The notes under the pieces: model-generated
Database searches by the model: none
Told to the model about the DNA's origin: nothing
Seen by the model: only the letters and a program-made list of their open reading frames with translations
From: an uncultured beta proteobacterium
GTDB taxonomy: Bacteria > Pseudomonadota > Gammaproteobacteria > Burkholderiales > Casimicrobiaceae
Direction: 5' to 3'
DNA: 64,000 bases
Assembly (NCBI GenBank): GCA_963830485.1
Contig: CAWHNE010000029.1
Location: 437,903-501,902, forward strand
Shown: one piece after another, positions 52,110 to 64,000 of the stretch
How positions within the stretch are numbered: position 1 is the first letter of the stretch
Layout: the number at the start of each line of letters is the position of its first letter
Made by a program: the position numbers and the translations under genes

Positions 52110-54012
52110 CTAGCGCAGGGTTTCCCGCTTCACCGCGACATCGAAGCGCAGCGCGCTTTGCGCTTCGCCGCGGCCCGCTGTCTTGCTGCGACCTATCCAG
52201 AGCCAGCTGCGCCCGTCGCTGCTCCTCGCGTACTGGAACTTGCGTTGCAGCGTCGCACCGATGCGGGGCACCTCTTCCTCCTCGATGACGAGCGTGTCGT
52301 CGTCCGGCATCGGTGCAGCGGGTCGCGGCGCAGCATCCAGCCGCGCGGATAGAACACGTAGGCGCGCAAGCCGTCGCCGATCGCGATGCGCGTGATGAAG
52401 TCGTCCTGTGCATCGAGCAGCGCGAGGAAGTCGACGTAGGCCGGGTCGACTGCGCCGATCACGTCGACGCTCGCCTCCGGATAGAAGCGCTTCATGCCGG
52501 CGCGCGCGAGCCGGATGTTCAGCGGGTCCACGAAATTGATCGGCGTGTCGCGCACCGGCAGCAGCGGCGTCCAGTTGGCCGGGACCGGTGTCTGCAGCCG
52601 GTAGACCAGTTGCGGGCTGGCGACGCCGCCGTCGAAGTCGATGCGCTGCTGGAAGGCCAGTGCCTTCGCCTCGAGCTCGCGATCGAGCGGCTCGCCCGAC
52701 ACGCCCTGCACGGTGTGCTCGATCGCCCACGCGAGGTTGGCCATCTCGTCGCGCGCGAGCATCGTCTCCTCGAGCACGATGCCTTCCGCGACGCCGTCGA
52801 GACTGTCCGGCAGGAACAGCGCATGATCGAGGCGGCCCTGCAGGTTCGCGTCCGGCGTCACCGAGTACATCGTCCACTGCGCGCCCGCGGGGTTGCTGAT
52901 CGCGTTGGGTGACGACACGATGCCGAAGTTGTCGGTGATGACGAAGTCCGTCACGCGATGGATCCAGCCGACCGGCAGGCGCACCGGCACGAGGAACCAG
53001 TCGTTGCCGAAGGTCAGCGCGAACTCGGTCACGCTCATGCGCAAGAGGTCGGTGACGCCGGCCTCGGCGCCGGCGAAATTGACGTTGCCGTCCTCGAACT
53101 CCCAGAAGCGCTCGGCCGGCATGCCGGGGTAGCGGACCGGCGTCGGGTGGCGCGACGCGACCGCGAACGTCTGCCGCACCGGATCGCCCTGGGGCGCGAC
53201 CGCGGTCGCGCGGAAGTCGTCCCAGTCGACGTGGCCGTCGGTGTATTCGGCGGCATCGAGCCGCGTGTCGTCCGCCTTCAGCGCGAACGCGTATTCCATG
53301 CGATTGCGTTGCCACGATGCGGCTGGCCGCATCGCCCTCGTAGAGCAGGTCGTCCAGCCACGCGAGCCAGGTCGCGAGCATGGCCTTCGCGTCGTCGGCG
53401 TCGGCGCCGCCGAGCGCCAGGCGCGCCGGCAGGCCGGTGAGGTTGCCCCCGGCATCGACGAGCGGGCGCAACTCGTCGGCCAGTGCGATCGCGTCGATGG
53501 TTCGCGCGTTCAGCAGCGTCGACCACAGGAGCCCGGCGCGATCGGCGTCGGGATCGGTGGGCGCGGGCAGCGCCAGCGGATAGGCGGCGAGCAGCGCGGC
53601 GCGCACCGCCGGGGTCGCCATGCGCAGCGCATGCTGGCCCGCCTCGCCGCGCAGTCGCGCATGCGTGGACCACGCCGGCTCGGCCTCGACGCGCGTTTCG
53701 ATCGGCACGTCGTGATCGGTGATCGGCTGCCACGGCGCCGCCAGGTCGGCGCCTGCGCGAAACGCATCCACCTTCACGCCTTGCACCGCGAACTGCACGC
53801 GCAGCGGCGTGCCGGCGTCCTCGCCCTGGAACTCGTTGAACTGCCACTGCCGCGACAACAGCCACAGCGGGTCGGCCAGCGGCGCCGAAAGCCCGGCCTG
53901 CAGGCTGATCGCCGTCGGCTGCGTCTCGAGCCGCGTGATGCCGGTGATCGACGGCTGTCTTGACGCCGACCAGGGTCAACGAGGCGGCGGACTTCTTGAA
54001 TTCGATGCGCAC
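52110..54012 (-). pseudogene. giant-operon gene 4: ~634-aa conserved-looking hypothetical, three frame breaks
   Basis: ATG 54012 is 8 nt after GAGGAG. MRIEFKKSAASLTLVGVK | (+1 ~53958) ...DPLWLLSRQWQFNEFQGEDAGTP... | (+1 ~53322) ...PAERFWEFEDGNVNFAG...FGNDWFLVPV... | (-1 ~52320) ...PMPDDDTLVIEEEEVPRIG... Stop at 52110. The pieces lie in ORFs 53278..54012, 52110..53858 and 52193..53455. Confidence 0.75.
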
Positions 54013-54027
54013 GCTGTCTCCTCGCGA

Positions 54028-61900: not shown

Positions 61901-62462
61901 GGCTGCCTGGTTCTCCGGCGTCGGCGGCGTGACGACGTCGACCGTCGACACGGCCTGCGAATGCGCCCACAGCCACGACTCCGCCAGATCCGGCAATTCG
62001 CTCTGGACCTGCGTGGCGGTGAGGCTGATCGACGGCAGCGGCCGGCCGGCGCGCAGCGTCGGCGGCGCGACCTTCTTGCGCTCGACGACCACGAGCACCA
62101 GCCACGGACGCAAGTGTCCGGTCGCGTTGGCGCGTGCCGGCGTCAGCAGCCACGGGAAGTCCGGCGGGTCGAAGTCGACGATCGCGAGGTAGTTGGGTTC
62201 GAAGTTGGTCGTGTTCGGGCGCGGGTCGGTGCGCACGATCAGGCGCTGGTCGATGCCGATCACGTCGGCGGGACCGTACAGCGTCAGGTCGATGTTGCCG
62301 GACACCGCGGTCGCCGCGTTCCCGTCCTGCTTGGCCTGCAGCGTGAGACCCACGGTGATGCGGGGACGCGTCGCCAGCGGCGCCGGCGGCGGTGTCGACA
62401 TTCGCATGCGCCCGCGCGAGGCCGCGGCGCGACCAGGGCGTGAAGCGGTAGGGGATCGTCAT
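58993..62462 (-). pseudogene. giant-operon gene 2: ~1155-aa hypothetical, about five frame breaks
   Basis: ATG 62462 overlaps the upstream stop (ATGA): MTIPYRFTPWSRRGLARAHANVDT | (+1 ~62395). The ORF 60431..62407 body follows (...PWLVLVVVERKK..., ...ESWLWAHSQ..., ...LPVYFSWTFSTGPVGD...), then +1 breaks at ~60592, ~60478, ~60335 and ~59960. It ends in ORF 58993..60084 (...NPRFVEALMIGANHEMGREMLW...). Confidence 0.75.
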
Positions 62463-64000
62463 GCCGCCAGCTCCGCCAGCTCGACCACGTGCACGCTTCC
62501 GACGGCGACGTCGGTCACGCCGTCGCGCGCCTGCGAAGCGCGCCACACGCTGGTGAACGTGCTGCCGCCGCCGGCCACCGCCAGCGTCGACTTGTCGGCG
62601 ACCGTGACCGGCGCGGGGTTGACCTTGATCGCCGTCGACTGCGCGGGCTGCGTGAGCGCGCGATCGCGCAGCGACGAGCGGCCCGCTGCGCCGTGGGCCA
62701 GCATCGGACCATGCGTCGCTTCGAGGAATTCGCCCCCGGCCCTGCGTCGCGCGACCTTGGGCACCGGCAACGCACCCAGGTCCGCCTCTTCGTAGCCCAG
62801 CGGCTCGGGAATGATTTCGCCCATGTCGAAGTCCGCGCTGGCCAGCTGGTAGCCCGCCGTATACGACTCGAACGATGGCTTGGCGAGCTTGTCGTCCTGC
62901 GACATCTCGATGAACTGCGCGGCCGCGAAGAAGTCGCTCGTCGCCTGCGCCGCCGCCACGCCGATCGACGTGGGGTTGGCGCCTTGCGTGAGCGCCAGCG
63001 CGCCGCCGAAGAATTCGTTGGCACCCTTGATCTTGCTGCCGCTCGCCTTGTCCATGCGCAGCTCGAACGGCGCCAGCTTCTGCTGGAAGGTCAGCGAGCC
63101 GAGCGGATGCGCGAGCAGATCGGCTCCTGCGGCGATCTTGGCAAGGCTCAGGAAACTGTCGCCGCTGGCCGGGAGCTGGGCGCTCCAGTTGGCGATCTTG
63201 GCGATTTCCTTGCTCAGCAGGTCCGCCAGGTCGACGGTGACTTGCGGCGTCTCGACGTCGTCGCCGAAGTGCGCGTCGATGTGGATCGAGAAGTCCGGCA
63301 GCGGCCACGGCGTGTGGACCTCGGCATTGCCGGCGATGCGCCAGCGTCCCGGCCCGGCCAGCGTGCCGTCCAGGTGGATCGACGCGAAGTCGATGCCGAA
63401 GACGTGCACGTCGAGGTAGGCGAAGATGTCGACCTCGAAGTAGAACTTGGGCGACAAGATAGACGATGGCATCGAAGCCGAACCCGCCCTCGATGCTGGC
63501 GATGCCGATGTCGGCCCAGGCGCGCAGCTCGGCGCCGGCCTGGACGGTCGCCGACGTGATCGCGAAATAGCCCTTGAACGAGACGCCGACGATGCCGATG
63601 TCGAGGCTCATCCCGACGCGGTCGAACGGCGACGGGATGTCGGACGGAATCTCCTTGAAGTGCGGATGGAAGCCGCCGGCGCTGATGATGAACGTGGGCT
63701 GGTCGCCGAAGGACGCGCGGAACGCGAACTGCCCGGTGATCGAGATGAAGGCGACGCGCGAATGGATCAGCTTGGCGTCGAACGCTATCTTCAGCGGGTC
63801 GAAGACCACCGTCCCCACGAAGTCGAGACGCAGGTACAGGAGCGCGAGGTCGGCCGATATCAGCGGCGGCAGCGCCACGATGGCCTGGCCTAGCAGCGTG
63901 AACTGGCTCGCCTCGACGAGCAGCCCCATGCGAACGGTGACTAGGCTCGGCGTCGCCCACCCGAGCTCCAGCATGGGACCGATGATGAAGTTGCTGGCCC
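62459..64000 (-). pseudogene. giant-operon gene 1 (C-terminal >510 codons; 5' end beyond the window), one frame break
   Basis: The frame is open to the window edge (...ASNFIIGPMLELGWATPSLVTVRMGLLVE...SAGGFHPHFKEIP...GFGFDAIVYL). A +1 break at ~63457 leads into ORF 62459..63472 (SPKFYFEVDIFAYLDVHVFG...). Stop at 62459. Confidence 0.7.

Follow-up and report, generated by a model that had tools for sequence, protein, structure and literature searches.

We analysed a 64,000-nt stretch of DNA (the window) that reaches into an operon of four genes, which takes up the final 13 kb of its contig (Table 1). Gene 1 extends past the window and is truncated where its contig stops, at window coordinate 65229. 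Its fragment in the window matched the DUF6603 family PF20248 with E = 1.4e-15 and 57.3 bits, and its orthologue in the related genome G061 did so with E = 2.4e-114 and 383 bits, against a gathering cut-off of 27 bits for both. The start of gene 2 overlaps the stop of gene 1 (ATGA); gene 2 has no match in Pfam or NCBIfam, and its G061 orthologue is an intact ORF. An NCBIfam search of all four genes returned nothing, and a literature search on DUF6603 operons found no paper. The same four-gene order is found here, in a paralogous operon (C21:162821-178147) and in the orthologues, and these giant-protein operons share the PF20248 match in gene 1. When proteins of the paralogous operon were used as tblastn queries, gene 3 was recovered as five pieces spread over all three minus-strand frames (query C21_1589) and gene 4 was matched in frames -2, -3 and -2 (query C21_655).

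Frame breaks were located with a codon-usage Viterbi HMM and by alignment to four related operons. Together these gave 17 breaks in the region 52312-63455, the same number that a sequence-only reading of this DNA had counted, with positions that agree within ~15 nt. Three more HMM switches (~54017-54030, ~58955-59006 and ~62464) are true gene junctions. When aligned to the operon of G061 (92% nucleotide identity) and to those of G046 and G002, every break was an indel in the present sequence: a single additional base at 14 breaks, the loss of one base at two (56989-56991 and 52312) and a complex linker event at the remaining one. The excess of extra bases noted in the earlier reading was thereby reproduced, with 15/17 breaks of the one-extra-base type and two of the missing-base type. 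Its remark that several breaks fall outside homopolymers also stood: not one of the 17 is within a homopolymer of at least three bases, which rules out homopolymer errors. Several inserted bases sit between differing bases, and few breaks lengthen a base run. No common sequence or methylation motif was seen by eye across the 14 insertion contexts. In the rest of the window, the stretches that had been named as clean were clean, and the nine breaks reported there compare with 10 high-confidence HMM calls, a difference of one. The HMM call at 38897, which corresponds to no indel relative to L049, may be spurious.

Table 1. Genes of the operon and the frame breaks within them. Positions are window coordinates; private, only in this assembly; L048, second assembly of the same species.
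Feature	Position	Strand	HMM switch (gene region)	Description	Relatives and context
Gene 1, DUF6603 protein (~1226 aa in relatives)	62459..64000	(-)		Pfam PF20248 match	
Gene 2 (~1157 aa in G061)	58993..62462	(-)		tblastn with intact paralogue C21_948	
Gene 3 (~1640 aa, no known domain)	54028..58950	(-)		Full-length homologues of 1636-1643 aa	
Gene 4 (~640 aa, no known domain)	52110..54012	(-)		tblastn with C21_655; HMM segments	
Break 1	63455	(-)	63460 (gene 1)	One extra base, private; not in L048, G061, G046	Doublet G/T: allele of G046 plus allele of L048/G061
Break 2	62381	(-)	62383 (gene 2)	One extra G, common to L048; not in G061, G046	Doublet G/C: G046 allele plus G061 allele; the shifted frame has an ATG at 62407, a possible alternative start
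Break 3	60591	(-)	60589 (gene 2)	One extra C, common to L048; not in G061, G046	Second allele not known
Break 4	60484	(-)	60485 (gene 2)	One extra C, common to L048	
Break 5	60329..60352	(-)	60320 (gene 2)	Complex event in a length-variable linker, net +1	13-nt gap common to L048; 2 extra nt private; length differs in G046 too
Break 6	59951..59952	(-)	59941 (gene 2)	One extra base, private; C and G alleles adjacent	C in L048; G in G061, G046
Break 7	58421	(-)	58419 (gene 3)	One extra C, private; not in L048, G061, G046	Second allele not known
Break 8	57835..57839	(-)	57841 (gene 3)	One extra base, private; T and C alleles adjacent	T in L048, G046; C in G061
Break 9	57076..57078	(-)	57081 (gene 3)	One extra base, private; C and G alleles adjacent (GCC/GCG)	C in L048; G in G061, G046
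Break 10	56989..56991	(-)	56985 (gene 3)	One base missing, private; polymorphic site	G in L048; C in G061, G046; nothing here
Break 11	56808..56812	(-)	56815 (gene 3)	One extra base, private; two-haplotype hybrid	GGCGATG here; GGCGTA in L048; GCGATG in G061, G046, G002; protein variants EGV/EGI and EAM both found in intact homologues
Break 12	56650..56655	(-)	56642 (gene 3)	One extra base, private; A and G alleles adjacent	A in L048; G in G061, G002
Break 13	56456..56460	(-)	56459 (gene 3)	One extra base, private; two-haplotype hybrid	GCGCAAGCC here; GCGCAA-CC in G061; GC-CAAGCC in L048
Break 14	56419	(-)	56419 (gene 3)	One extra C, common to L048; G and C alleles adjacent (GTG/GTC)	G in G061; C in G046, G002; ENA protein P0035 loses frame here too
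Break 15	53957	(-)	53957 (gene 4)	One extra C, private; not in L048, G061	No known second allele
Break 16	53320..53322	(-)	53306 (gene 4)	One extra base, private; C and G alleles adjacent	C in L048; G in G061
Break 17	52312..52313	(-)	52313 (gene 4)	One base missing, private; polymorphic site	G in L048; C in G061; nothing here

Comparison with orthologous loci, a check proposed in the sequence-only reading, showed that the breaks are indels specific to this sequence. G061 has none of the 17, and neither do G046 and G002 at the sites that they cover. Twelve of them have no counterpart in L048 (ENA ERZ25039602 contig_10007), an independent assembly of the same species that is 98.4% identical. 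L048 and this contig have the neighbouring genes AKR, DUF6064, DUF1428, Hcp and arfB in common, and the operon-AKR junction is the same in both, ruling out a chimeric contig end. The L048 operon carries ~17-20 private one-base indels of its own and that of G061 carries 3; the fragmented, short-read-like MAGs G046 and G002 have no private frame-breaking indels. Divergence between the two same-species assemblies is ~1.9% in the operon versus 0.66-0.96% in the flanks.

In most of the private insertions, two alleles known from different strains stand next to each other. In a both-allele test that relied on the same-species assembly, six of the eight clean private insertions carried both alleles of the relatives (null probability 0.114; P = 3e-4 when counted as 6/10). 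Two further private insertions are two-haplotype hybrids, and both deletions fall on polymorphic sites. A locally poor consensus through strain heterogeneity had been offered as one explanation of the clustering, and these data support it. We consider it likely that the 17 breaks are consensus artefacts from the collapse of at least two closely related strains in a noisy long-read metagenome assembly, and that the four genes are most likely intact in the organism and under purifying selection. Reads of at least two such strains would have been merged into one consensus; at a strain SNP or small multi-base variant, this consensus would sometimes emit both alleles, giving one extra base, and sometimes neither, giving one missing base, and either event would shift the reading frame. 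From the pattern we infer two strains in the source sample, the sequencing technology and a faulty polishing step. Dirty patches would lie between long clean stretches because errors would arise only where the co-assembled strains differ, and the enrichment of the operon over its flanks would be due, at least partly, to higher strain divergence. The private insertions at 58421 and 53957, for which no second allele is known, count against strain mixing. The stretch 54028-56400 is clean here despite ~21 SNPs/kb relative to L048, and divergence between assemblies therefore reflects within-sample heterogeneity only roughly.

The earlier reading had also argued that the breaks are too clustered for uniform read error. 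This holds in the window, where 17.5% of the length contains 15 of the 25 HMM calls (P = 2e-6), and it characterises the assembly throughout rather than the operon in particular. Across the MAG, the HMM called 1,636 breaks (0.33/kb), 78% of them of the +1 type. Counts in 394 non-overlapping 12-kb windows had a mean of 3.9 and a variance of 33, with at least 15 calls in 23 of these windows and a maximum of 45. In all, 79 patches that make up 12.6% of the genome contain 72% of the breaks (1.88/kb inside versus 0.107/kb outside). The operon, with 15 calls in 11.1 kb, is one ordinary patch among these and one of 11 on its contig. Another conserved block, C1:5000-14100 (hrpA, DUF1631 and a solute-binding protein), has ~65 private one-base insertions in 9 kb, against only 1-7 in each of four relatives. 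In this patch, 38/54 insertions fit two synonymous third-position alleles versus 43.5% expected (P = 6e-5); the same test on the operon alone gave 7/12 and was not significant (P = 0.22). A contig-end effect was rejected as the main cause, as the genome-wide excess near ends is merely ~1.3-fold (0.39-0.43/kb versus 0.27-0.34/kb). The rpoB and rpoC genes are intact but lie inside a 62-kb clean stretch, which makes them uninformative either way.

These results can be set against other explanations. The sequence-only reading had suggested a recently inactivated, decaying pseudogene array, an idea that fits the 17 breaks in 11 kb and the intact paralogous operon, free of any HMM break, which would perhaps make this copy redundant. 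Its many breaks in recognisable genes also recall genuine pseudogene accumulation in bacteria such as Mycobacterium leprae or recent symbionts, but this operon shows none of the marks of such decay, namely nonsense codons, deletions of several bases and relaxed dN/dS. In a frame guided by the orthologue, there was no stop in 3,359 codons. A selection check on the repaired frames, also proposed in that reading, showed strong purifying selection with no relaxation: nonsynonymous and synonymous changes in this lineage (N30:S118) were not shifted upward relative to the sister lineage of G061 (N41:S108), and pN/pS between this assembly and L048 was 0.05, 0.14 and 0.13. The direction of the events, 15/17 net +1 with 14 single-base insertions, is opposite to the deletion bias that real bacterial pseudogenes reportedly show. 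With 12 of the breaks missing from a 98.4% identical assembly and the same signature at 1,636 sites genome-wide, we regard decay as extremely improbable. Low coverage or missing polishing alone, producing random read errors with no role for strain mixing, would fit the patchy genome-wide pattern, the slight excess near contig ends, the position of the operon in the last 13 kb of its contig and the two private insertions that lack a known second allele. Long-read MAGs of low coverage are known to retain frame-breaking indels, for which the IDEEL score serves as a measure (Sereika et al., 2022, PMC9262707). However, random errors would miss polymorphic sites, where most of the clean insertions carry both alleles; they would not enrich synonymous third-position doublets as in the C1 patch, nor would they strike the same positions again in a second assembly. 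Low coverage as the sole cause is thus unlikely.

Such recurrence bears on a mixed case, in which most breaks are artefacts and those at 62381, 60591, 60484, ~60335 and 56419 are real, genes 2 and 3 being naturally split or recoded. Four single-base breaks (62381, 60591, 60484 and 56419) are common to L048; the ~60335 linker also changes the reading frame in each of the two assemblies, with a shared 13-nt gap and differing small indels. Random coincidence predicts ~0.03 shared sites, so identical extra bases in two independent assemblies are far above chance and must reflect either systematic errors that recur or real changes; the ATG at 62407 could rescue the shift at 62381. If real, these breaks would leave the DUF6603 operon of this species with genes 2 and 3 split or recoded yet under purifying selection. 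Some 4-5 of the 17 breaks could then be inherited, but strong purifying selection persists downstream of them between the two assemblies (N16:S48, P = 4e-16 against neutrality). Moreover, after 60591 the old frame meets a stop at ~60433, before the frame is restored, and intact, full-length homologues of gene 3 are the rule. Among the four shared single-base breaks, those at 62381 and 56419 alone have a known second allele, and their doublets are two alleles of relatives, the form that a recurring both-allele artefact should take; errors are also abundant in exactly this region of both assemblies. The mixed case is very unlikely, and the shared breaks can be read as recurrent artefacts.

Collapse of strains into one consensus has parallels in known artefacts. 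Indel errors of long-read assemblies (Nanopore or PacBio CLR), which proovframe was designed to address (bioRxiv 10.1101/2021.08.23.457338), are likewise single-base, fragment conserved genes, are absent from short-read relatives and depend on assembly quality and coverage, as here. Unlike those classic indels, which sit in homopolymers, the insertions described here lie outside runs of three or more bases, outnumber deletions ~4:1 genome-wide and mostly lie exactly on inter-strain SNP positions. Another parallel is the Trypanosoma brucei Lister 427 assembly (Cosentino, Brink and Siegel, 2021, PMC8445201), where a collapsed mosaic consensus merged two alleles into apparent frameshifts and where variants, and with them artefacts, differ greatly in density from one part of the genome to another. 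There the two homologues of a diploid eukaryote are known, whereas here the two sequences would come from co-existing bacterial strains whose presence is deduced.

The finding is best taken as a data-quality warning. About a third of the genes of this MAG would be misannotated as fragments or pseudogenes, and a conserved, uncharacterised giant operon would be falsely scored as decaying. The artefact signature, patches of one-base insertions that fall on SNPs and spell out both alleles, can be read from the sequence alone; annotators who meet it should take the affected genes to be intact and repeat the polishing with a strain-aware method. Elsewhere in the window, a MocR-type gene that has breaks at 42958 and 43268 in this assembly is intact in the second assembly of the same species.

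Frame breaks in the giant-gene operon were studied by comparative sequence analysis throughout. To locate them, we used a Viterbi model of seven states, six for the coding frames and one for non-coding DNA, which learned its codon usage from long ORFs of the same genome. With gene junctions left out, the model placed 17 switches in the operon, coinciding with the 17 breaks listed in a sequence-only reading of this DNA. Alignments to the orthologous operons of three related genomes (nucleotide identity to ours 92% in G061, 81-85% in G046 and 77% in G002) confirmed and resolved them: one extra base is present at 14 sites, one base is missing at two, and the remaining break is a complex event in a linker of variable length. 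Beyond the operon, the earlier count of nine breaks was nearly matched, with ten confident calls from the model. One HMM call, at 38897, is probably spurious or due to two overlapping genes. The source MAG comprises 4.96 Mb in 35 contigs (68% G+C, 91% complete); the window is C29:437903-501902, and the contig end cuts off gene 1. Genes 2-4 have no Pfam or NCBIfam family match, and a literature search found no paper on DUF6603.

Coordinates of the operon, its frame breaks and the loci compared with them (window coordinates unless a contig or locus is named)
Feature	Position	Strand	Observation
Operon	52110-65229	minus	Last 13 kb of contig, which ends at 65229
Gene 1		minus	DUF6603 (PF20248) protein, family match
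Viterbi switches in operon	52313-63460		17
Shared single-base breaks	62381, 56419		Doublet of two alleles known from relatives
Shared single-base breaks	60591, 60484		Past 60591, old frame meets a stop before frame restoration
Shared linker shift	~60335		Frame shift in both assemblies
Haplotype hybrids	56808-56812, 56456-56460		Two multi-base haplotypes
MocR-type regulator breaks	42958, 43268		Third extra base at 43422
HMM call	38897		Type -1, stop 103 nt away; no indel vs same-species L049
Operon match in G061	C4:408221-420119		92% identical to 52100-64000
Flank match in G061	C9:198-220 kb		74-86% identical to 33000-52100
G061 private insertions	L009 (G061:C4) 10404, 10425, 12324		One base each
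Conserved block	C1:5000-14100		hrpA helicase, DUF1631, solute-binding protein
Densest error patches	C1:1-53000, C29:415283-424214, C35:392001-420000		HMM calls reach 45 per 12 kb; hrpA ~7 private insertions per kb
Paralogous operon (L027)	C21:162821-178147		830 aa PLD-like; 1164 aa DUF6603; 948 aa; 1589 aa; 655 aa

We further compared the operon with a second same-species assembly, reached by searching for proteins similar to the G061 gene 3 product. Besides intact homologues of 1636-1643 aa, this search yielded an ENA protein very close to ours (P0035, 1080 aa). Its 734-kb contig (ERZ25039602 contig_10007, with loci L048 and L049) matches our contig at 98.4% identity over 19.5 kb. The neighbouring genes are those of our contig (AKR, DUF6064, DUF1428, Hcp, Rieske reductase, arfB), showing that the junction between operon and flank is real. 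In a five-way alignment, 12 of the 17 operon breaks are private to our assembly, while L048 carries ~17-20 private one-base indels elsewhere, some within stretches clean in ours; three occur in G061 and none in G046 or G002, both fragmented MAGs of short-read-like character. The MocR-type regulator, broken twice in ours, has an uninterrupted 486-aa reading frame in L049. All three of its extra bases are private to our assembly, and the intact product is a GntR/aminotransferase protein. G061 is also a few-contig MAG. Besides its private insertions, the tail of its 1583-aa gene 3 ORF is out of frame, as full-length homologues cover only ~80% of the ORF; the same artefact thus affects other species representatives of the genus.

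Clustered breaks characterise the genome as a whole, in which the model called 1,636 confident breaks (0.33/kb, 78% of them one extra base). Counts per 12-kb window have a mean of 3.9, a variance of 33 and a maximum of 45, and 23 of 394 windows hold at least 15 breaks, the operon's count. Break-free stretches longer than 10 kb make up 57% of the genome, with a median break-to-break distance of 586 nt. We delimited 79 patches that account for 72% of breaks in 12.6% of the genome (1.88/kb inside vs 0.107/kb elsewhere); the operon (1.35/kb) is one of 11 on its contig, and contig ends are enriched only ~1.3-fold. Over its 9 kb, the conserved C1 block, syntenic in four relatives, has ~65 private insertions of one base vs 1-7 in each relative. 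Gene calls in the densest patches are unusable unless corrected. In a free-living 5-Mb bacterium, some 1,600 genes frameshifted almost entirely by single inserted bases are not credible as biology. On all the evidence, the frame breaks are almost certainly no real biological feature.

The sequence-only reading had offered two explanations, a recently inactivated pseudogene array or locally poor consensus. Operon decay was rejected: read along the orthologue's codons, our sequence has no stop in any of the 3,359 codons aligned across genes 1-3, and our lineage shows 30 non-synonymous to 118 synonymous substitutions (outgroup G046), far from neutral given that ~74% of sites are non-synonymous (P about 1e-42). 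The G061 lineage is similar (41 to 108; Fisher P = 0.17 vs ours). Two of the checks proposed in that reading, dN/dS for relaxed selection and comparison of orthologous loci, speak against decay, 12 of 17 breaks being missing from the same-species assembly. The breaks common to ours and L048 deserve separate weighing, since ~0.03 shared sites would be expected from coincidence of random errors, leaving recurrent systematic artefacts or real shifts. Two of them are doublets of alleles known from relatives, and a hypervariable linker, error-rich in both assemblies, holds the other three. Downstream, the assemblies differ by 16 non-synonymous to 48 synonymous changes (P = 4e-16 vs neutrality), which is hard to reconcile with inherited inactivation. 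Together with the stop past 60591, this favours recurrent artefacts, and it is very unlikely that some shared breaks are real.

The evidence supports the second explanation, locally poor consensus, in the specific form of strain heterogeneity, with two alleles probably written side by side. Six of the eight clean private insertions place next to each other exactly the two alleles found at that site among L048, G061, G046 and G002, usually with the L048 allele first and the G061/G046 allele second (null probability 0.114; P = 3e-4 even as 6/10). At two sites our sequence is a hybrid of haplotypes that both occur in intact proteins, and each of the two missing bases is at a polymorphic site. Of 54 private insertions in the C1 patch, 38 are consistent with two synonymous alleles at the third codon position vs 43.5% expected (P = 6e-5). 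The operon differs between the same-species assemblies at 233 positions in 12 kb (1.9%; flanks 0.66-0.96%), which may partly explain a patch here. Indels are a known problem of long-read MAGs (PMC9262707; bioRxiv 10.1101/2021.08.23.457338), and consensus artefacts from collapsed haplotypes have also been described (PMC8445201).

The operon lies elsewhere in G061, on a different contig from the flanks, with similarity far above the genome background, which suggests its recent transfer within the genus. Our genome also holds a second, five-gene paralogous operon (~33% identical) with intact ORFs, an extra PLD-like first gene and no HMM breaks inside. By tblastn it matches the window operon in pieces, the frame jumping between them, and operons of this type also occur in G073, G062 and other genomes.
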